DNA of 64,000 nucleotides from Methanotrichaceae archaeon (GCA_963803145.1 CAWDLW010000025.1:32001-96000); one strand, 5' to 3'; shown: positions 2,971 through 26,583, counted from the stretch's first letter. Notes: generated by a model from the letters alone, not told the origin. Program-made: numbers and translations.

Positions 2971-4071
2971 ATGCTTAACGTACTCATACTTGGCGTAGGC
3001 CAATGCGGAAACAGGATCCTTGATGCCATAAACAAGGAGGCTTTCGGGGGGTCCACCATCTCAAAGTACTGCTTGCGCCCGAAGTTTCCCAGCCGAGTGG
3101 AAACAATCGCCATTAATACCGCTGTTAACGACCTCAAAGAGCTGAGGTTCACGACTGCCAAGGATAGACTCCATGTCCCAAATCTGCATGGAGTAGGGGC
3201 GAACAGGAATGTAGGCAAACAGGGATTCTGGGAGAACCGCGACCTGTTAATGGAGGAGATCGAGAAGAGAGGAGACTTCGATCTGGCCTTCGTGATCACA
3301 TCAACATCAGGCGGCACAGGTTCGTCTTTTTCGCCGCTGCTTATTCAGGAGCTGAAGAGGAGATACAGGAATATAACGGTGGTGACGGTGGCTATTCTTC
3401 CCTTCAGAGAGGAGGGCTCAATCTATCTTCAAAATGCTGCCTTCTGCATGAGGGAGCTGATGGAGGTTGATTCGGAAGGTCTCATTCTCGTTGATAATCA
3501 ATATCTGAAGAGATGCAGCGGAGATATAGCCACTGCATATAATAAGATAAATAGCATGGTTGCACAGCGACTGCTCTTTCTCATAGAATCGTTGGACAGC
3601 GAGATGTTATCCGTAACTGATTTGGGCGATTTCAAAACCGTTATGAGTGGTGGCTTAAGAATATGCACAATGGGCTTCTTCCAGGCCGACAGGAAAACGC
3701 CTTCAGTAAAAACTGCAATAGAGAATAGCGTCAAACCGGGCAACCTGCTTTATCCTGCAAACATCTACGAGGATGCTGCAAGGGCCATGGTTATCATACA
3801 GGGATCTAAAGAGCATCTCGATGTTGACGAAATAACTAAAGAGATCGAGAGGCTCTCCGCAAGTGCAGGACACGTCTTCAAGGGACTTGTGGTGAAGAAA
3901 GGATATCCTAGGGTTCTATCAATATTTACGCTTGCAAGTGTGCCGGAACTAGAGGCACTATACGCTCAGGCTGCTCGTGCAATCCAAGAGGAGAAGGATC
4001 GAAAACAGAGGGCGAGAAAGAATCTGAGCGACGCATTTGCGCATATTGAAGATCTGGAGGAGATTTATTAA
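2971..4071 (+). CDS. cetZ: Tubulin/FtsZ superfamily protein, CetZ-like
   Basis: GVGQCGNRI, AINTA, GxGAN and SGGTGS signature, LVDN; tubulin-like GQxG and GGTGS rather than FtsZ GGxG/GGTGT. Confidence 0.75.
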   Translation: MLNVLILGVGQCGNRILDAINKEAFGGSTISKYCLRPKFPSRVETIAINTAVNDLKELRFTTAKDRLHVPNLHGVGANRNVGKQGFWENRDLLMEEIEKRGDFDLAFVITSTSGGTGSSFSPLLIQELKRRYRNITVVTVAILPFREEGSIYLQNAAFCMRELMEVDSEGLILVDNQYLKRCSGDIATAYNKINSMVAQRLLFLIESLDSEMLSVTDLGDFKTVMSGGLRICTMGFFQADRKTPSVKTAIENSVKPGNLLYPANIYEDAARAMVIIQGSKEHLDVDEITKEIERLSASAGHVFKGLVVKKGYPRVLSIFTLASVPELEALYAQAARAIQEEKDRKQRARKNLSDAFAHIEDLEEIY

Positions 4072-4126
4072 TATTATTTATAATACCGCTAGTAACTATT
4101 TAGCGCATGTTCTATAATTTTATACT

Positions 4127-5014
4127 TTAAAGGCTAAATCGCTTATACATCATAGCATACATTTGGTTCAATCCCAGGACTTTTGCCACGTCTGTCATCT
4201 CAGCAGCTTTCAGAATTTGCGCCTTCACAGGAGGCACAGGCTTACCATCTTTTGCATACACAGCACCGCCTTTCATCTTTGAGCATATGTAGCTGCCAGC
4301 GCTCCCTTCGATGAACACCTCTCCGCCATGCATCTCGGCACCTGTGAAATCGCTCGCATTGCCACGAACAACAATTCTCCCGCCCTTCATCAAAACGCCT
4401 GTGTTGCGGTCTGCGTTTCCATAGATATCTATCAAGCCAGAGCGCATGAGTATTCCTGTGCTCATGCCGGCATTGCCTCTAAGTGATATAGTTCTCGTGG
4501 CAGTCATCCTTGCCCCGACAGTATCTCTTAAGATGCCATCGCGAATCAATAGTCCATTTGTATCAAGGGTATTGGGCTCCAAGATAGTAGTGCCGTGCTC
4601 AAGAGCATCGGTGATGGATATATATTTCCTGTATCCGCTGAGATCTGTCTCGACTTCTATAATATTTCCGATAGGCTGCCCAATCTTGCCGCTCACATAA
4701 ACAGTCCCACGAAGCATGCTTATGCCCATTCTGCTGCCTACGTCGCCATCCACTACTATTTTGCCTGTTCCCTCTATTGGCCCGCCCTTGCCTCCGAATC
4801 TGACTAAATCGACTCCAAGGCTCGACCCAAGCCTGCTTCTTACAGAGCCTCTTATGCGCACTGTCTCTCCTCTTTTCAGTGCATCTACGATCCTGCGGAA
4901 GCTAATGCCGCTTATGGTCTTTTCAGGATCCAAGCGAGAGCCTTTATGCTGCCAATAAAAGTCAAATGTAAAATCGCATAGACACTCTTCTCCCGAGGCC
5001 TCAATCTCTATCAA
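4127..5014 (-). CDS. GXGXG beta-helix protein (FwdC/GltB C-terminal-like)
   Basis: Repeated GxxMxGGxIxxxGxAG units. Confidence 0.75.
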   Translation of the reverse strand: MIEIEASGEECLCDFTFDFYWQHKGSRLDPEKTISGISFRRIVDALKRGETVRIRGSVRSRLGSSLGVDLVRFGGKGGPIEGTGKIVVDGDVGSRMGISMLRGTVYVSGKIGQPIGNIIEVETDLSGYRKYISITDALEHGTTILEPNTLDTNGLLIRDGILRDTVGARMTATRTISLRGNAGMSTGILMRSGLIDIYGNADRNTGVLMKGGRIVVRGNASDFTGAEMHGGEVFIEGSAGSYICSKMKGGAVYAKDGKPVPPVKAQILKAAEMTDVAKVLGLNQMYAMMYKRFSL

Positions 5015-17213: not shown

Positions 17214-18296
17214 TAGTTAATCCACGTAATTTTTACCTCATAGATACCCTTAAATAATTAATATACGATATAGCCGTTCATGGGCAGGAAACCTGTAATT
17301 GTAAGACATATCTCGAAGGTAGAATTAGATCAATTGTATAAAGATGAGAGAAACATAAGAATTAAAGAACGGCTACTAGCGATAATACATTTATACGAAG
17401 GAAAGAATGTATATATAGTAGCTGATATTCTTAAACGAAGTGAAAAGACAATAAAGAATTGGCTAAGCGATTGGAACAAACAAGGATATGATGGATTGAT
17501 ACCACAGAATAGAAACGGCAAAGAACCAATGATATCTTTTGATGAATGGGATAAAATTATCGAAGAGATTGAGGACAAAGGAATGACTATAAAAGAGGTA
17601 ATAAAATATGCAAAAGACACAAGAGGCGTAGAATATTCGTATAAAGGTGGTTGGAAGATTTTAAGATCAATAAAGAAAGTCAAATATGGTAAACCATATA
17701 TTAGAAATAATAAGAGGCCTGTTAATGCAGAAAGTTTTCTAAAAAAAGGATAGATTCAGTAATAACAACAGTCAAAGAACCTATTATTGGATTCCTTGAT
17801 GAAAGCTCTTTGCAACAGCGACCTAATACACGCAGGGTTTTAAACACCCATATGCTAAATTATCAACCTGGAAAAGTTAGGTCTAGAACTGTTTTTGGGT
17901 TCATTGCATTGAATGGAAATGATGAAGTTATGGTCTCTCACTCATCCAAGAAAGAAGATTTAATGATCTTCGCCCAAAAATTGAGAAGTAACAATATTAT
18001 GAGACCAATATGTATTGTCCTAGATAATGCTAGAATACATCTAGCTAAGAAGTTTAGGGCATTAGCCCACGAACTTGATATCCATTTAATATATAACGTG
18101 CCATATTCCCCTGATTTAAATCCTATAGAGTTCGGTTGGAAGGATTTTAAAAGAGAGATATCAAAATATACTGATTTTGATGAAGCTATTGAGGATGCCC
18201 AAGATTGCGCTTTACAAATATTTTATTCCAATAAAGATGGATACTCTAAGTCTTGGATAAAGCAGTTTATAAGGTAAAAAGTTGGGAGAATGACTA
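17214..18296 (+). mobile_element. IS630-family insertion sequence
   Basis: Imperfect terminal repeats TAGTTAATCCACGTAATTTTTACCT / AGGTAAAAAGTTGGGAGAATGACTA, TA on both sides (17212-13, 18297-98); low GC. Confidence 0.88.
17280..18277 (+). CDS. IS630 transposase in two ORFs joined by a probable programmed -1 frameshift
   Basis: HTH ORF 17280-17753; A7G run at 17741-17748; the -1 frame gives ...IGFLDES...VLDNARIH...YSPDLNPIE (DDE triad). Confidence 0.88.
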
Positions 18297-20250: not shown

Positions 20251-21557
20251 TAACCCTTTTTGATGATCCTCCAAATGGCTATTATCCCGATGGTGTTTAC
20301 GAGTATTATCAGTATGATGCCGATAATCTTTCTAGTATCGTTTCCGTTTCCACTGGCGGCTGCTGCAAGATCGATTGAACACTCCCCATTCACGCATATG
20401 TTTAGAGATTTATCGCCGCTTGAAACTGTGTAAAGCCCGCGCTGCAATCCCTTGAAAATATAGTTATCATCACCGGAGGCGTTTGCTAATAGCTTTCCGC
20501 CATTATAGAGCGAGACCTCGCCTGATGCATTTGTCACAAGGAGGTCATAGCTGTCCTTGATGGGCAAAGGCCTGGATGAGGATATGTTCCAGGGCAGACC
20601 AAGCAGATCTAGAATCGTCGGGGCAATATCCTCCTCGAACCAGATGCCTCCCAGGTGAATCTCATCAACGCCAGGGCCGAATACGGCCAACGGAGTTCTC
20701 AGGCTTTCCAGGCGGTCGGAAAATTTGGCTGCTGAATGGCCACCCTTTCCTTTCTCGTCGGGAAATGACATGCCATGATCTGCGGTTACAAATAATAGCA
20801 CATTGTGCTTGCGGCATGTCTCAATCAGCTTCCCCAGGGGCGCATCCAGGCCCTTGATAATTTCAAGATAATCCTTTTGGCCGAGGCTCTGACCACCGCT
20901 GTCAACTGCACCCACGTTGATCATGAGGATAAATGGGCGATTTCCCATATTTTCAACAAGGTCTGAGGCAGCTTCAAGCCCCCAGCGGTTATATCCAATG
21001 TATGTCTCTGTTCCGTGCCCTACATCATACTCGGGAAAAGCATCGCGCCATCTCTCCAAGACCGCGCGTAAATCAGCAGGAAGATTCTTCTTGGCACTCA
21101 AAGATGCATTCGCATTATAGATTGAGTTGTTGCCGAAGTAGAGAACACCATCCTGTCTTATAAGCATCTCTCGAAAGTCGGCATGTTGAAGAATCGCCAA
21201 GGAAAGATAACCATTCTCATGCGCCACATCAAAGATCGTTCTTCCTAAAGATTCAGAATCTGCCTGCACTGAGCCTGCAACAATAATGCTATGGCTTTTC
21301 AATGTCTCAGGGACTCTTGAGCGCATATCGAGCACTCTTGCGCCATCGCCTGTGAGATTGAAAAGAATGGTTTTGCTGAGCTGTATTCCATCCATTGTAT
21401 AAGGACTAAACTCGCGCTCAGGGTAGACATAAGAGGCGCCGAGACCATCTACAACCAGGAGAACTGCACCTATGGGATGCTGCTCCTCGCTGACCTGAAC
21501 ATCCAGTGCACTGCCTGTGCTTAATAAGAGTAATAAAACAAGCAAATGCAGGATCAT
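20250..21557 (-). CDS. Exported alkaline-phosphatase-superfamily metalloenzyme with C-terminal TM anchor
   Basis: LLVVDGLG, TADHGM, GGH, DIAPTILDLLG motifs; signal peptide and C-terminal helix. Confidence 0.8.
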   Translation of the reverse strand: MILHLLVLLLLLSTGSALDVQVSEEQHPIGAVLLVVDGLGASYVYPEREFSPYTMDGIQLSKTILFNLTGDGARVLDMRSRVPETLKSHSIIVAGSVQADSESLGRTIFDVAHENGYLSLAILQHADFREMLIRQDGVLYFGNNSIYNANASLSAKKNLPADLRAVLERWRDAFPEYDVGHGTETYIGYNRWGLEAASDLVENMGNRPFILMINVGAVDSGGQSLGQKDYLEIIKGLDAPLGKLIETCRKHNVLLFVTADHGMSFPDEKGKGGHSAAKFSDRLESLRTPLAVFGPGVDEIHLGGIWFEEDIAPTILDLLGLPWNISSSRPLPIKDSYDLLVTNASGEVSLYNGGKLLANASGDDNYIFKGLQRGLYTVSSGDKSLNICVNGECSIDLAAAASGNGNDTRKIIGIILIILVNTIGIIAIWRIIKKG

Positions 21558-21671
21558 TGGAGACTTATCGATAATCTTGTAGGATTTATCTCTATCTCTT
21601 TCAGGCTTACTTTATGGATCTTCTAAGGATCGATGCTTTGATTAGCATTAACAATCATTAAGCCGATTGGC

Positions 21672-24383
21672 ATGCCGCCAGATACCTCATCGCCCATAGG
21701 CTTCAAGGTTTTGGTAATAGTATCCCGACCTTTGGATCTCAAGGACCTCCCGAACATTGCAGACCAGTGGGCCCTGCTCGATGGTTTGAGGAGAGTCAAT
21801 GCCCCCGCATACCTGAAGATTCTCCGGCCGCCCACAGTGGAAGGCCTCCGCACAGAAATCCTGAGCGGTTACGATATTGTTCACTTTGATGGACATGGCT
21901 CCTTTGGAGTGCGCTGCTCAGGCTGTGGCTGGCTCAATCCATCAGGAAGCGGGGCGTGCGGCCGATGTGAAGCCATTCTAGAAAACCAGGATGCTAAAGG
22001 CCACTTTTTCTTCGAGCGGGAAGATGGGAAGTTCGATTCTTTAGCTGCGGATGAGCTGGCGGAGATCATCATGAGCGATCCAGGATCTACTACAAAACTA
22101 GTCTTCTTGAGCGCATGCGAATCTGCCAAGGGAGGAGAATCCAGTCTCATGAATGCGCTGATAAAGAAGGGCGTTCCTGCAGTTCTGGGAATGAATGAAA
22201 CCGTCCCGGCCAGGGCGACCATGGCCCTGGCAGCCCCCTTCTATGCCGGTCTGGGAGCAGGAATGACCATAGCCAGAGCCTTCCAGGCCGCCCTGCCAGC
22301 CCTGAAGCGATTGGATGACGGCGCTGATCTTCAGAAAATCCCTATGTTGGATGGGCCAGGAAAGGAGATACGCCTTCTATCCTCCAAGGTTGCTGGAAAG
22401 GTAAGCTTCGATATCGAGCCACTTTTTGGGGTTCCGAGCCACGAGTTTGTGGGAGATTACATACGCAGCGATCTGCCTCGTGGTCGGAAGGGATTTGTCT
22501 CACGAGCTATAGACGCACTTCAGGGAGGAGAAAAGCTCGTCGTCCTCACAGGCCAAGGCGGAATAGGCAAAACTGTACTCGCGGCCGAGGTTGCACGGCG
22601 ATTGGTCTGGCGCTATCAAGGTGGAATCTTTTGGCGGAGTGCTGCCGATATGAAGCAATTGGGCTTGAATGAAGTGCTGGACGCTTTTGCCAGTGTCTTC
22701 GGCCCCGAGTTCCGCACGCTTCCCATCGACGCTAAACGCGATCAGGTTCTTAGTTATCTGCGAAATTACGACACCTCCAGCCTCTTAGTAGTGGACAACG
22801 CTGAGAATGTGCAGGACGAAAACCTCTGGCGTTTCCTGGAGAGCATCTCGCAGCCCAGTGCAGCTCTCGTAACCACACGGATAAGCCTGCCCCGAGAGGG
22901 CCGAGAGATCCGCGTGGAGGAGATGGAGCCGTTTGAGGCAGCCAGGCTCTTTATTAAAGAGGCCAGGCAGCGCTCACCCAAGTGGGGAGAGCACCTGAGC
23001 AGCGAAGATACAGACTGCTTGGACGAGATATCCCGCATACTCCACGGCCATCCGCTAGCTATCAAGCTGGTGGCTCCCCTGGTGGCAAGCAGAAGTTTGA
23101 CCAGCATTCGGGATGAACTTCGAAGAAATCCACCCAAAGGAGTATTAGATCGCTTTGACGTCTCTTACGCAGGCCTAACTGAGAGCCAGAAGGAACTGTT
23201 CCGCCGAATGGCTGTTTTCTATAGCTCTGTGATGGATCATGCAATTAAGGACGTGTGCTTGGATAGTGTCCAGAAAGATGATTTATCGATCTCAGATGGG
23301 GATCTCGGCGAGCTAGTCGGGAAGTCCTTTGTGGACAGAATTGAGGTTTCTGCTCAGGACGAATTAGGTAACGAGTCTATCGTTTATCGCTACCGCCTTC
23401 ATCCTCTCACGCGCCAGTATGCTATTGCTAAGGCTGGGGAGGATGTTTTGGCCAAGTATCGTGCTAGAGCCGCAAAGTACTTCCTGGGTTATGCTCAGCA
23501 TTTCCGTGAAAACTTCAACATGCTGGAGTGGGAGCGGGAGAATATCCTAGCTGGGATGGACTGGGCAGTGGAACAGCAGAGATCGGCATCCAATGAGGAG
23601 CTAGAGTCCGCTTCCTCCTGTGTTCTCCAATTCATGTTTGCCATTGATGATTATTTAGATACTAGAGGCTACTGGTCCGAATACGGACTGCGTCTTAGTC
23701 AGGCCATTGATGCTGCTGATGCTACTGAAGATAGAAAAGAGAAATCCATTTGGTTGTGTAACCTTGGAACTCTGGCTCAAAAGACTGGTGACTATGATGA
23801 GGCTCGTAAGCTCTACCAGCAGAGCCTAAAAATCTATCAGGATCTGGATGATAAAAAGGGCGCTTCTTATGTACTAGGAAATCTGGGCGTATTGGCTCAG
23901 ACAAATGGCGATTATGATGAGGCTAGACAGCTGTACCAACAAACTATAGATGTGGCAAACCAGCTTGAGGATAAAAGCAGCCTATCGAGGGGACTGCACC
24001 AGCTGGGTAACTTGGCCTATATGATCGGCGACTACGACGAGGCTCGTGGACTCTACCAGCAGAGCATGGAGATCAAACAGGCTCTGGGCGACAAGAGCGG
24101 GGTTTCCAGGTCACTGCACCAGTTGGGCATTCTGGCTCAAGACACGGGCGACTACGACGAGGCTCGCAGGCTATACCAGCAGAGCATGGAGATCGATCAG
24201 TCTCTGGGCGATAAGAGTGGCGTTTCCAAATCATTGCATCAACTGGCACTGCTTGAGGAGAGAACCGGGAATGTGAAAGAGGCATTGAGGCTAATCCGCC
24301 AAGCTGAGATAGCGTTCAAGGGACTAGGCAGCCCTTACGAGAAGCAGGCTCGTCAGGTTAGAGAAAGACTTGAGAGAAAGTGA
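21672..24383 (+). CDS. CHAT (caspase-like) protease - STAND/NB-ARC ATPase - TPR repeat protein
   Basis: HFDGHG and LSACES catalytic His/Cys motifs; Walker A GQGGIGKT, Walker B LLVVDNAE, TTR, GHPLAI, LHPL; about 6 40-aa TPRs GDYDEARxLYQQS. Confidence 0.9.
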   Translation: MPPDTSSPIGFKVLVIVSRPLDLKDLPNIADQWALLDGLRRVNAPAYLKILRPPTVEGLRTEILSGYDIVHFDGHGSFGVRCSGCGWLNPSGSGACGRCEAILENQDAKGHFFFEREDGKFDSLAADELAEIIMSDPGSTTKLVFLSACESAKGGESSLMNALIKKGVPAVLGMNETVPARATMALAAPFYAGLGAGMTIARAFQAALPALKRLDDGADLQKIPMLDGPGKEIRLLSSKVAGKVSFDIEPLFGVPSHEFVGDYIRSDLPRGRKGFVSRAIDALQGGEKLVVLTGQGGIGKTVLAAEVARRLVWRYQGGIFWRSAADMKQLGLNEVLDAFASVFGPEFRTLPIDAKRDQVLSYLRNYDTSSLLVVDNAENVQDENLWRFLESISQPSAALVTTRISLPREGREIRVEEMEPFEAARLFIKEARQRSPKWGEHLSSEDTDCLDEISRILHGHPLAIKLVAPLVASRSLTSIRDELRRNPPKGVLDRFDVSYAGLTESQKELFRRMAVFYSSVMDHAIKDVCLDSVQKDDLSISDGDLGELVGKSFVDRIEVSAQDELGNESIVYRYRLHPLTRQYAIAKAGEDVLAKYRARAAKYFLGYAQHFRENFNMLEWERENILAGMDWAVEQQRSASNEELESASSCVLQFMFAIDDYLDTRGYWSEYGLRLSQAIDAADATEDRKEKSIWLCNLGTLAQKTGDYDEARKLYQQSLKIYQDLDDKKGASYVLGNLGVLAQTNGDYDEARQLYQQTIDVANQLEDKSSLSRGLHQLGNLAYMIGDYDEARGLYQQSMEIKQALGDKSGVSRSLHQLGILAQDTGDYDEARRLYQQSMEIDQSLGDKSGVSKSLHQLALLEERTGNVKEALRLIRQAEIAFKGLGSPYEKQARQVRERLERK

Positions 24384-24414
24384 AAATGATCTATAGCGAT
24401 CAAGGTGTATTATA

Positions 24415-24627
24415 ATGTTAAAAATTCTCTGCCGGAATAATAACTGCGCCGCTCTAAATCATATCTTCCAGTGGAACGAGCGTCCCCACCTGGAAGCGGA
24501 AGGCAGACTAGCGAAGGAGGGAGACGAGGGAGCTGTCTCATTCGTTGTGAAATGCACCTCCTGCGGCACTAAGAACAAGATCTGGGTGACGAAGGTCAGA
24601 ACGATTGGTGTAACGAGGAAGCCCTGA
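24415..24627 (+). CDS. Small zinc-finger protein (70 aa)
   Basis: C-x4-C and C-x2-C pairs; SD-like AAGGTG upstream; its stop is 1 nt before the next ATG. Confidence 0.7.
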   Translation: MLKILCRNNNCAALNHIFQWNERPHLEAEGRLAKEGDEGAVSFVVKCTSCGTKNKIWVTKVRTIGVTRKP

Positions 24628-24628
24628 A

Positions 24629-25102
24629 ATGGCAGGTGTGGCAGGCGCTCCGGATGCCATAGGCGAAGATGTCACAGAGCTGGATGAGTTCTGGCTGGAG
24701 ACTGCCCGGACTGCAGTAAAGGAGTCCATAGGCTCCCTGGAGGAGGCTGCCAAGCAGCTCATAACTGCTGTGACGCTTGTGGAAGGCATCTACTTCGCTG
24801 CAGTCTCCTTCAGCGATCTGAAGAAGATATTGGCAGTTGCGGGATTAGATGCATGGGTGAGGATAGCAATCTTCGTCAGCCCAATCGTTATCTGGCTGAT
24901 CTGTCTGTTCTTTGCAGTGAGGGTCTTTACTCCTGAGAACTACAAGACCAATCTTAGTTCGCCCACACTTGCAGAGCAGGTTTATCGGGATATTGTCGGT
25001 TACAAGCATAAGAATTTGAAAAGAGCTTACTGGGCCCTACTGATCGGGTTTGTGCCGCTTATAATAGCCATTATCTATTACCTGAAATTGCTGGACGTCT
25101 AA
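24629..25102 (+). CDS. 3-TM membrane protein, topology reminiscent of Pycsar/DUF5706-type effectors
   Basis: Amphipathic N-terminal helix, two hydrophobic helices ending 'VFTP', then 'YKHKNLKRAY' and a third helix. Confidence 0.7.
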   Translation: MAGVAGAPDAIGEDVTELDEFWLETARTAVKESIGSLEEAAKQLITAVTLVEGIYFAAVSFSDLKKILAVAGLDAWVRIAIFVSPIVIWLICLFFAVRVFTPENYKTNLSSPTLAEQVYRDIVGYKHKNLKRAYWALLIGFVPLIIAIIYYLKLLDV

Positions 25103-25109
25103 AGTTGGC

Positions 25110-25262
25110 TTGATTGCCAGGTGAAAAATGGTGTGCCGATACGGTTAACCTGATGAGAGATGGCTACACCTGACCGAGGAGCATTCGGAGATGGCAGGTT
25201 ATTGTGCCGGTGTTCTGGAGACCGTGGAAGATCCTGATACTTATCGAGCAATTGAAAAATAG
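25110..25262 (+). pseudogene. Frameshifted remnant of a small RelE/BrnT-like toxin gene
   Basis: Reading across two frameshifts gives LIAR-KNGVPIRLT-DERWLHLTEEHSEMAGYCAGVLETVEDPD, resembling small 'IRLTxERWxHI..H.E....V..PD' toxin-like proteins. Confidence 0.5.
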
Positions 25263-25395
25263 GGTCGTGTCTGTGAGTTATTGATAATCGCTAACGAATG
25301 GCACAATTGATGCTCTTTGATAAAATGAAACTCGTGTGTGCGATTTCTGCAAGAACTTTCAGTAATCCACACCCACGACCAAAAATAGAAGGATC

Positions 25396-26583
25396 TTAGA
25401 AATCGGTCATGATCCTGTACTGATCGATCTCCGTCTGCTTGAGTGCAGCCAGGAACCTCTCTGCCATATCTTTTATGTCCTTGGATCTGGTTATGGCTCT
25501 GCCTACTACGAGTATATCTGCGCCTGCTGCTAGAGCCTGGCCGACGGTATCTACGCGGATTCCGCCTGCAACTGCAACAAGCAGCCTATGCTCCTTCGAG
25601 GAGAGTGCCTTGATATCAGGTATCTGGTCCCAGGCATGGGCGCTGTTCTCCATATCTATGGCTCTGTGAAGTTCGACTACATCAGGAAGGACTTCTATGC
25701 TCTTGAGAACCTGCAGCGGATTTGGAACATTTAGCATATCTATAATTGAGTATATGCTCGTCTTCCTTGCCTCATTTATCGCTAGCTCAAGGGTCTTCTT
25801 GGGCGCTAAGCCTGAGATCACGACAGCATCTGCAGTTGAATCCGCGGCCAGCCGTACCTCAAGGTTGCCTGTATCCAAAGTCTTCAGGTCGAGGATGACG
25901 AATGAGCCGGGCCTGATTGATCTGATCTCCTTGACAACTTGGATCCCAAGCATTTTCGCTAAAGGCGTTCCAACCTCGATGAGAAGATGATCGCTCTCAG
26001 GAAGCTCGCAGAGAACCCTTCTAACCTCAGCGATGTCCACAAGATCAAAGGCCACCTGAAGGTACGGCGGGTCCCATAGGCGTGTAACTCTGAATCCCAT
26101 GATCGGATGAGTTGACCTGTCCTTTTCGTAGAGCACCTTATCTATATCAGGGAAGCCTGCCATTGCCCTCTGAAGGGCAAGCTTTGTTGCACCATAGTTA
26201 TAGCGGTAAATGGCATCATAGTCCTTTGCTGCAGGATGTATGAACACAGATACTATTACTGCCAACTCCTCGACCCTATCCTTGGGAATTATGCCTTCAG
26301 CCACAGAATCGGCCACCGCTTTTGCAACTGCCATTTGCGCAGGCCCGAAGATCTGGGCCGCCTGTTCCATATTCTTTACAGTGACCTTGGGAACTATAAG
26401 CGTAGACGGTTTTGGCGGAAGGTTTGGCCGTATAACCCCCAAGAGTGGGGTATGTCCTGCAGAGAGCTGGGTAAGGCCATTTGCAAATGCAGTTCCAACA
26501 GGCCCATCCTTCTCCCCTATAATCAGGTCTATGTGAGCTATCTCAGGCTCTTTGCCGATCAGAGCCTCTCCAACTAAAAACAA
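25396..26583 (-). CDS. fae-hps: Bifunctional formaldehyde-activating enzyme / 3-hexulose-6-phosphate synthase
   Basis: GEALIG, AHIDL, FGPAQ (Fae) then LQVAFD, IEVGTPL, DLKTLD, VAGGI (Hps); TTG start behind GGAGGTGA. Confidence 0.93.
   Translation of the reverse strand: MFLVGEALIGKEPEIAHIDLIIGEKDGPVGTAFANGLTQLSAGHTPLLGVIRPNLPPKPSTLIVPKVTVKNMEQAAQIFGPAQMAVAKAVADSVAEGIIPKDRVEELAVIVSVFIHPAAKDYDAIYRYNYGATKLALQRAMAGFPDIDKVLYEKDRSTHPIMGFRVTRLWDPPYLQVAFDLVDIAEVRRVLCELPESDHLLIEVGTPLAKMLGIQVVKEIRSIRPGSFVILDLKTLDTGNLEVRLAADSTADAVVISGLAPKKTLELAINEARKTSIYSIIDMLNVPNPLQVLKSIEVLPDVVELHRAIDMENSAHAWDQIPDIKALSSKEHRLLVAVAGGIRVDTVGQALAAGADILVVGRAITRSKDIKDMAERFLAALKQTEIDQYRIMTDF

Follow-up and report, generated by a model that had tools for sequence, protein, structure and literature searches.

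In bacterial gasdermin systems, a sensor-fused protease of clan CD stands beside a small membrane-damaging effector; passages of the report describing them (10.1101/2021.06.07.447441) state that 43 of 50 bacterial gasdermins adjoin proteases, among which CHAT proteases are the commonest and some are fused to tetratricopeptide repeats (TPR), WD40, LRR or NACHT, and that cleavage takes off a short inhibitory peptide. In the type III-E Craspase, the TPR-CHAT protein Csx29 cleaves Csx30, as described in an excerpt of PMC10028731. Caspase-like N-terminal domains are also known among prokaryotic STAND proteins (excerpt of PMC13581612), and part of a further report states that the role of such domains in Avs is unknown (10.1101/2024.10.24.620036). 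Here, we analysed a window of 64,000 nucleotides (nt), i.e. the whole stretch GCA_963803145.1 CAWDLW010000025.1:32001-96000 of a Methanotrichaceae archaeon, in which three adjacent genes at positions 21672-25102 look like a protease-bearing NLR with a neighbouring membrane effector; this trio recurs in archaea and bacteria and has the appearance of a self-destruct or immune module that has yet to be described.

In the open reading frame (ORF) listing of the window, the three genes are all on the plus strand, at 21672-24383, 24415-24627 and 24629-25102, and encode proteins of 903, 70 and 157 amino acids (aa), respectively. The gap between the first two is 31 nt and that between the last two is 1 nt, and minus-strand genes lie on both sides of the block. 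An earlier note, made from the DNA sequence alone, had described the same three-gene block; its coordinates, protein lengths and gaps proved exact, and the block indeed breaks a run of minus-strand genes.

Gene 1 encodes, by Pfam and orthologue alignment, an NLR-like sensor-protease in which a CHAT protease, an NB-ARC STAND ATPase and TPRs follow each other. The CHAT domain (PF12770; clan CD, caspase-like) covers residues 25-210 (21744-22301, plus strand) at E 9.9e-22 and 78.1 bits against a cut-off of 24, and was recovered in a whole-genome Pfam search as well. NB-ARC (PF00931) covers residues 276-476 (22497-23099, plus strand; 2.2e-8, 34.1 bits, cut-off 23.5), and the TPR array extends over about residues 680-900 (23709-24371, plus strand; TPR_12 2.8e-46 at about residues 690-890). 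The motifs listed in the earlier note were all located: in the CHAT domain, HFDGHG at residue 71 and LSACES at residue 146, with Cys149 as the predicted catalytic residue, and in the STAND part, Walker A GQGGIGKT at residues 294-301, Walker B LLVVDNAE at 371-378, GHPLAI at 459-464 and LHPL at 576, to which the sensor-1 TTR at residues 401-403 can be added. Sequence searches with the NOD matched the solved STANDs AfsR (8k60, 8.4e-9) and Roq1 (7jlv, 2.4e-4). The proposed effector-STAND-TPR architecture is borne out, with the domains in that order and the motifs intact.

When 18 full-length orthologues were aligned to the window protein, a putative His/Cys dyad, formed by the His in HxxGHG and the Cys in SAC, was kept in 19 of 19 sequences. 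The same holds for the Lys of Walker A and the Asp of Walker B, for the Arg of sensor-1 and for GxP. Both H71 and H75 of HFDGHG are invariant among the aligned orthologues, and we take the choice between the two as the catalytic His to follow from caspase topology. Just past the catalytic His, the CHAT domain carries a zinc-ribbon-like CxxC...CxxC insert (C82, C85, C96 and C99; 21915-21968, plus strand), which is present in 12 of 12 aligned Methanotrichaceae orthologues and in none of the seven bacterial ones. Mean pairwise identity among the orthologues is 0.47 in the TPRs, 0.65 in CHAT and 0.70 in the NOD; the TPRs are the most divergent and the most length-variable part of the proteins, which range from 791 to 1212 aa. 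With its N-terminal effector, central STAND with intact NB-ARC motifs and C-terminal repeat sensor, in that order, gene 1 resembles Avs and bNACHT proteins. However, characterised Avs are single genes with built-in nuclease or other effectors, whereas here two additional conserved genes follow, and the PADLOC Avs/NLR models gave no match to gene 1 beyond the TPRs.

Gene 2 (24415-24627, plus strand) encodes a predicted four-Cys zinc ribbon of 70 aa, with the pattern C6-x4-C11 ... C47-x2-C50; the four Cys had already been noticed, and in an alignment of 25 sequences they are invariant or almost so, as are W20 and N54. The protein belongs to no family in Pfam, NCBIfam or PADLOC, and in a sequence search of the family against solved structures the best match was chance-like (E 0.0017). 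In the C-terminal tail, (V/I)(T/R)R is near-universal among 78 unique sequences and stands 1-8 residues from the stop codon; in the window, the tail reads VTRKP. An alignment of the zinc ribbon proved too variable to scan for loci.

Gene 3 (24629-25102, plus strand) encodes a membrane protein of 157 aa in which Kyte-Doolittle peaks at 44-62, 79-97 and 137-155 agree with the three hydrophobic segments expected beforehand. The motif EEAAKQLI ahead of the first segment is invariant. The N-terminal region is acidic and, across the family, variable until a semi-conserved GExLTxLDxFW, and the loop at 100-135 is rich in Lys and Arg; by the positive-inside rule, this suggests an N-in, C-out topology with both soluble parts in the cytoplasm. 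The family has no Pfam or NCBIfam model of its own, and a sequence search against solved structures returned chance-like matches only (best E 0.054). It is a sizeable family, with 942 representative clusters at 50% identity matching at E <=1e-3 and 341 at <=1e-10; the clusters among the 150 matches listed are 83-266 aa long, mostly about 150 aa. Common fused forms were not found among close relatives, and a 347-aa match with an ABC-permease domain is probably a gene-call artefact.

The earlier note had named Pycsar/DUF5706 effectors as a lead for this protein, and profile comparison upheld the lead as remote homology to PycTM. Among 26 family members, 22 were matched by the PADLOC PycTM model (best 1.4e-5) and 11 by Pfam PF18967 at E 1 or better (best 6.1e-4); the window protein searched alone matched the PADLOC model at 5.1e-4, over its last 40 residues only. 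As reference, we used six PycTM proteins from Acidobacteriota that pass the Pfam cut-off (6 of 301 genomes). hhalign of the membrane family against these six gave a probability of 90.9 and E 1.2e-6 over 100 collinear columns, which take in the three hydrophobic segments as well as the conserved motifs that precede the first and third of them. By contrast, in 61 controls the probability was 0.3 for the reversed profile, at most 0.6 for 30 column shuffles and at most 58.9, over at most 61 columns, for 30 block shuffles. The likeness to the PF18967 proteins includes the (E/A)(A/D)xK(A/Q) motif ahead of the first segment, the three segments and the K(Y/H)(R/K)xL helix. On the evidence of this alignment, the family is a remote PycTM relative that lies outside PF18967; on a tree, it is separated from PycTM with an SH-aLRT of 97. 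A 235-aa neighbour of one Pfam-passing PycTM (L213) has the look of a cyclase by eye and had no Pfam match at E <=1e-5, and canonical Pycsar operons are therefore not claimed for the six reference proteins.

The trio is linked well beyond the window. In species-representative genomes, a relative of the membrane protein is encoded at 36 loci, in Methanothrix, Methanocrinis and other Methanotrichaceae, Chloroflexota, Acidobacteriota, Zixibacteria, Ignavibacteria and metagenome-assembled genomes assigned to 'Clostridia'; a second scan of these genomes, with an alignment as the query, gave the same loci. By tblastn, a CHAT-NLR lies upstream in 26 of these 36 loci, in four only as a C-terminal end at a contig edge, and a zinc ribbon is present in 30. 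The upstream sequence is too short to judge in five of the ten loci without an NLR match (L012, L028, L030, L031 and L033); in the other five, about 8 kb is available (L019, L020, L029, L034 and L036). Orthologues are also present in cultured Methanocrinis and Methanothrix relatives (L018 and L021). In a metagenome sample made up of the best 80 of 111 stretches encoding a relative, and searched with hidden Markov models built from our own alignments, the zinc ribbon was found in 66 of 70 loci having at least 300 nt upstream, and the CHAT-NLR in 41 of 52 loci having at least 700 nt upstream, with two further fragments and nine exceptions, among which are a WD40-GAF protein (L109), the dCTP-deaminase-like gene of L153 and IS200 or integrase-like ORFs; this sample partly overlaps with the genome sample (e.g. 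L082 is L003 and L137 is L022).

Linkage was also observed among more distant relatives. A second subfamily, about 40% identical to the window's membrane protein, follows a CHAT-NB-ARC/NACHT-TPR gene in six of 12 additional loci, and the small Cys protein in between has its two knuckles in swapped order. In a phylum-wide archaeal search, the membrane profile matched 16 of 401 genomes in four families, three of them beyond Methanotrichaceae, and NLR, small Cys protein and membrane gene stood together at 10 of the 16 loci. Among Chloroflexota, matches were found in 18 of 401 genomes, and CHAT and/or NOD/TPR was adjacent in 14 of 17 new loci with distant relatives (E 1e-9 to 1e-35). Here, a Pfam check returned CHAT with a central NB-ARC or AAA_16 in three sampled proteins, CHAT on the split protein of locus L189 and NB-ARC on an edge-truncated protein of locus L200. 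The gene order in Chloroflexota is NLR-membrane gene, membrane gene-NLR or zinc ribbon-membrane gene-NLR; a gene order that varies while the neighbourhood is kept over this range of E-values is a classical signature of functional coupling. Finally, in a tree of 51 family members and the six PycTM proteins, CHAT-NLR partners occur in at least three well-separated clades, and the clade of the window protein mixes eight archaeal and eight bacterial rows (SH-aLRT 94), so that transfer has taken place between the two domains of life. In total, the co-occurrence of the small genes with CHAT-STAND proteins, which the earlier note had put forward as a check, holds in the genome, metagenome, archaeal and Chloroflexota samples.

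Within the trio, genes 2 and 3 are the more closely joined. From the stop codon of the zinc ribbon to the start of the membrane gene, the median distance is 5 nt (range -11 to 20; 19 intact loci), as against a median of 23 nt and up to 1167 nt from the NLR to the zinc ribbon, the distance being enlarged in one case by an inserted IS200-like gene. Moreover, the two are fused in an archaeal protein of 277 aa (L186:4758-5588, minus strand), with the ribbon at residues 1-59 and the membrane profile at residues 60-196 (E 1.5e-15), and in a Chloroflexota protein (L204:5998-6618, minus strand), in which Zn_ribbon_3 (2.6e-8) at residues 39-63 is followed by the membrane domain. These fusions argue for a physical association of the ribbon and the membrane protein and would place the ribbon on the same side of the membrane as the N-terminal helix of its partner. 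Judged by spacing and fusions, the zinc ribbon and the membrane gene form the tight core of the module.

Distant relatives of the membrane protein adjoin other clan CD proteases. Relatives that are about 28% identical stand beside a 1553-aa TPR-CHAT protein without STAND at locus L071 (CHAT 1.2e-58) and beside a 317-aa Peptidase_C11 at L072 (4e-25), and at L189 a distant relative stands beside a split pair of TPR and CHAT; a further Peptidase_C11 (L206:2049-3281) lies 3.7 kb from the archaeal zinc ribbon-membrane fusion (L186/L206). Since these TPR-CHAT and C11 proteases lack the NLR scaffold and nonetheless adjoin the membrane family, proteolysis is favoured as the link between the two.

The trio differs between closely related genomes. 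We compared 10.2 kb of DNA around it with two genomes of the same genus, G019 and G004. In G019, the left flank (to 21557) and the right flank (from 25389) abut (C1:515504/515512), and in G004 they are separated by 259 bp. The sequence at 21558-25388 is therefore an indel of 3,831 bp that is present in the window genome and absent from both same-genus genomes; it consists only of the three genes and a trailing non-coding stretch of about 290 bp. An imperfect 8-bp direct repeat, AGGATCAT and AGGATCTT, stands at its ends, and its GC content is 0.508 as against 0.469 for the window.

We favour, with a probability of roughly 0.55, the reading that the block is a horizontally mobile three-gene NLR-type conflict module in which an activated protease licenses a membrane effector. 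Gene 1 would be the sensor and switch, with the TPRs for the ligand, the NB-ARC STAND for nucleotide-dependent oligomerisation and the CHAT protease as the output. Genes 2 and 3 would form a translationally coupled effector cassette in which a cytoplasmic zinc ribbon is paired with an inner-membrane protein that has three segments and belongs to the PycTM superfamily. Binding of a ligand to the TPRs would lead to oligomerisation and to activation of the CHAT domains by proximity; CHAT would then cut either the zinc ribbon or, in the membrane protein, the N-terminal helix on the cytoplasmic side, and the cut would free the membrane protein from restraint, so that the membrane is impaired and the cell arrests or dies. 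The role of the module would be abortive infection or programmed cell death, with a virus as a possible source of the trigger.

Among the described systems, the gasdermins share the outline of this scheme, including the proposed release of an effector by cleavage: in both, a sensor-fused clan CD protease lies beside a small effector, which damages membranes in gasdermin systems and is proposed to do so here, and both occur in bacteria and archaea with similar lineages enriched, as far as the consulted passages of 10.1101/2021.06.07.447441 go. By contrast, the effector of the trio is alpha-helical, with three hydrophobic segments and PycTM kinship, and an additional zinc-ribbon gene looks obligate; no gasdermin family is among the Pfam matches (E 1 or better) or PADLOC matches of genes 2 and 3. 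The Craspase shares a TPR-linked CHAT; in the part of that literature seen, a sensor event activates this protease, which then cleaves a specific protein of its own locus. However, the sensor here is a STAND ATPase and not the RNA-guided Cas7-11, the candidate substrates are unrelated to Csx30 and Csx31, and the likely output would be damage to the membrane and not the freeing of a sigma factor. As a test for type III-E, we searched the insert for RAMP genes and repeat arrays and found neither; RAMP genes stand beside the zinc ribbon-membrane pair only at one unrelated locus (L034/L205). In type IV Thoeris and in type III-B SAVED-CHAT/PCaspase systems, too, a caspase-like protease is the executing arm. 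These proteases are activated by small molecules and cut many proteins after Arg, according to part of 10.1101/2024.10.24.620036, whereas the protease of the trio is fused to an NLR and tied to a membrane cassette.

Several observations weigh against our reading, and they concern the cleavage site, the partners of the cassette, its genomic surroundings and the PycTM assignment. With respect to the cleavage site, a cut after the conserved tail Arg of the zinc ribbon would remove only 1-8 residues, and no basic residue is conserved at the N-terminal end of the membrane protein; on present evidence, neither the ribbon tail nor this N-terminus can be called the cleavage site.

With respect to the partners, the zinc ribbon and the membrane protein stand beside PP2C or IS200 genes at loci L019 and L020, with no protease in 8 kb upstream. 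At L127 the pair is found with IS200 and at L123 with an integrase-like ORF, at L203 beside Cas3, and at L070/L074 and L183/L184 beside housekeeping genes, in each case with no clan CD protease in the sequence read. At L153, a dCTP-deaminase-like gene (3967-4734, plus strand; DCD 1e-42), itself preceded by two unannotated ORFs of 241 and 488 aa, lies directly upstream of a pair without NLR. Moreover, the pair closes a type III CRISPR-Cas operon of Chloroflexaceae (L205, equal to G491:C59, 7068-18097; the same locus as L034); this operon encodes a Card1-type CARF protein, a Cas10 palm2, five RAMP ORFs, the zinc ribbon and the membrane relative (E 1.1e-50), and no protease was found within the 19 kb read. 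At L036, the membrane gene is flanked by genes for a TCAD9 protein and an nSTAND1-wHTH NTPase, and at L029 only a fragment of the membrane gene is present. IS200/Y1-type transposases adjoin the pair at L020:7210-7626, L127:197-613 and L026:7063-7506, and at L026 the transposase separates the NLR from the zinc ribbon.

The earlier note had tied its proposal to the two small genes not occurring independently of CHAT/STAND genes. They do so occur in a minority of loci (L019, L020, L127, L153 and L205) and are linked to CHAT/STAND in the majority, and the idea that protease cleavage is the only trigger is weakened because of this minority. The same loci, above all L205, support the main alternative, in which the zinc ribbon and the membrane protein are a self-contained effector, or a toxin/antitoxin-like pair, plugged as an adaptor or independent cassette into various sensors; it would be triggered by contact with an activated sensor or by loss of a labile ribbon instead of specific CHAT cleavage, and CHAT itself would be the main, promiscuous effector with the membrane cassette as a parallel arm. 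The variety of partners, from type III CRISPR-Cas with Cas10 and CARF to the dCTP-deaminase-like gene, TCAD9 with nSTAND1, and Cas3, also speaks for it, as does the much tighter spacing between ribbon and membrane gene than between NLR and ribbon. Furthermore, the caspase-like proteases of type IV Thoeris are described as promiscuous Arg-specific effectors (part of 10.1101/2024.10.24.620036), and PycTM and caspase were not cross-activated in an E. coli Pycsar/type IV Thoeris operon (excerpt of PMC13069673). However, contact alone does not predict three clan CD architectures, i.e. CHAT-NLR, TPR-CHAT and C11, some of them without a sensor scaffold, and in every counted sample most loci do have a protease. 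We regard this alternative as rather unlikely, and continue to prefer a protease-licensed membrane effector.

With respect to the surroundings, the flanks of the trio in the window are housekeeping genes and not a defence island, with GlnK, Amt and a phosphodiesterase-like gene on the left and Fae-Hps and others on the right; among Methanothrix loci the flanks differ, except for Amt-GlnK near L017. No relative of the membrane protein was found on viral contigs (0 of 303 candidate stretches), nor in 72,556 plasmid records or 50,697 phage records. The hosts are largely filamentous or aggregate-forming (Methanothrix, Methanosarcina-like archaea and Chloroflexota), and a developmental or altruistic death would fit them as well. 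Such observations favour regulated proteolysis outside immunity, in which the trio would serve membrane or envelope physiology or developmental death with an endogenous stress signal as the trigger. The host lifestyle is in line with the enrichment of caspases and STANDs in multicellular prokaryotes described in passages of PMC7159879 and 10.1101/2020.01.06.895854, and gene 1 has a weak NCBIfam match to HetF, a cell-division CHAT protein, at 4.2e-4 and far under the cut-off.

The distribution of the family argues the other way. In Methanotrichaceae, the membrane gene was matched in 45 of 100 other genomes and, among genomes at least 90% complete, in 31 of 64 including our own; it was found in neither of the two other genomes of its own genus, and many of the matches are fragments or carry frameshifts or stop codons. 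Patchy presence even within the genus, frequent decay, the indel, transfer between domains of life and TPRs as the least conserved part are traits typical of defence genes, as judged from the sequences, and CRISPR-Cas and dCTP-deaminase-like neighbours occur occasionally. Regulated proteolysis for a purpose other than immunity therefore appears to us distinctly unlikely.

With respect to the PycTM assignment, the window protein had no PF18967 match at E 1 or better (cut-off 27.2 bits), a search of its own genome with the Pfam PycTM model did not return it at E 0.1 or better, and in a per-genome search with the PADLOC PycTM model it scored E 0.08 and ranked below a spurious ORF. If the remote homology is taken at face value, the membrane protein could be opened by a cyclic nucleotide as in PycTM, with the CHAT-NLR merely nearby, and the pair in the L205 operon does lie in a context of cyclic-oligoadenylate signalling, with a Cas10 palm domain and CARF. 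However, no pyrimidine cyclase (PycC) or other nucleotide-synthesising gene is present in the 3,831-bp insert, where the partners are instead a zinc ribbon and a protease-NLR; the stretch of 30-40 residues that PycTM has between the second segment and the KY helix is absent from the family; and CHAT-NLR genes accompany the family far too regularly for chance. We consider nucleotide gating highly improbable.

If the protease-licensed reading is carried beyond the window, the pair of zinc ribbon and PycTM-like protein may be a portable death cassette licensed by clan CD proteases, a counterpart of pyroptosis without gasdermin that arose in archaea and bacteria, moves between them and is wired to NLRs, TPR-CHAT proteins, C11 proteases and even type III CRISPR-Cas. 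The gating of PycTM-superfamily effectors could then depend on proteolysis or a protein partner and not on cyclic nucleotides. We put this wider view forward tentatively.

The indel also contains a repeat. At 25263-25382, a sequence of about 120 nt with the octamer AAAAATAG on both sides, found by DNA search and folding, has copies of 77-79% identity elsewhere in the genome (contigs C32 and C15, and a partial copy on C18) and at least six copies in the same-genus genome G019. It folds as a long hairpin (-36.9 kcal/mol, z -3.68, equalled by 0 of 200 shuffles). Because of the dispersed copies, the long hairpin and the octamer on both sides, this palindromic element reads as a miniature inverted-repeat transposable element (MITE). 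The earlier note had placed a toxin-like pseudogene at this end of the block, and we did not recover one: Pfam gave nothing meaningful for the two short minus-strand ORFs in 25102-25372, and the MITE-like repeat takes the place of the supposed pseudogene. Rfam gave zero matches across 21400-25500, and bacterial-type promoter and terminator models, unsuited to archaea in any case, predicted sites no more often than in shuffled sequences.

Other elements related to the trio by position or by domain were observed. A DDE_3 transposase fragment of 155 aa (9.7e-16) at 17810-18277 lies 3.4 kb upstream of the indel, beyond GlnK-Amt. In the genome G004, about 5 kb from the empty site, a minus-strand sequence (C67:12688-13229) is 66% identical in DNA to the NB-ARC part of gene 1 and may be a paralogous STAND gene. 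The window's own genome encodes two further CHAT proteins, at G000:C9:27375-27962 (L159) and G000:C25:10563-11444 (L157). One is a CHAT-NACHT protein with an ORF of 114 aa, hydrophobic at its C-terminal end, ahead of it, and the other is a 667-aa protein with CHAT at its C-terminal end; neither has a relative of the 157-aa protein nearby. In another member of the Methanotrichaceae (L187:4905-6152, plus strand), the membrane domain of the same family is fused to C-terminal TPRs in a protein of 416 aa. In a protein atlas, the homologue P0005 gave 'hypothetical' clusters and one cluster with PycTM on 21% of its members; we note this as a lead only.

With respect to novelty, no PADLOC 2.0.0 model fits the trio, in agreement with the earlier note, which did not recognise it as a named system, and we found no description of it in the published literature; the supplements of large STAND and conflict-system surveys, one of which (PMC13581612) covers 90 or more families, were outside the search and may list the NLR clade. 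Related in spirit are the conflict systems of Kaur, Burroughs, Iyer and Aravind (2020), in which STANDs, caspase-superfamily peptidases and pore-forming membrane effectors are combined in variable operons of filamentous lineages; the parts of that study consulted describe neither the trio nor the membrane family. The relative at L036, between TCAD9 and an nSTAND1 NTPase, provides a link to ternary and NTPase-centred conflict systems. Finally, the supposition that such a module would be unusual in an archaeon does not hold, given the relatives in 45 of the 100 other Methanotrichaceae genomes and in three further archaeal families.

If our reading is true, the trio would add to the gasdermins a second class of membrane executioner, unrelated to them and likewise controlled by caspase-like proteins, and would be among the few NLR-type cell-death modules that are common in archaea. 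Its effector family, although sizeable, still awaits a Pfam model. For the mechanism of Pycsar-type effectors, the trio would offer a natural minimal version without the nucleotide system, and, since the system is compact, with three genes in 3.4 kb and obvious catalytic residues, the hypothesis is directly testable. Methanothrix is a key acetoclastic methanogen of digesters and wetlands, and a suicide module that is widespread could influence the response of its populations to viruses.

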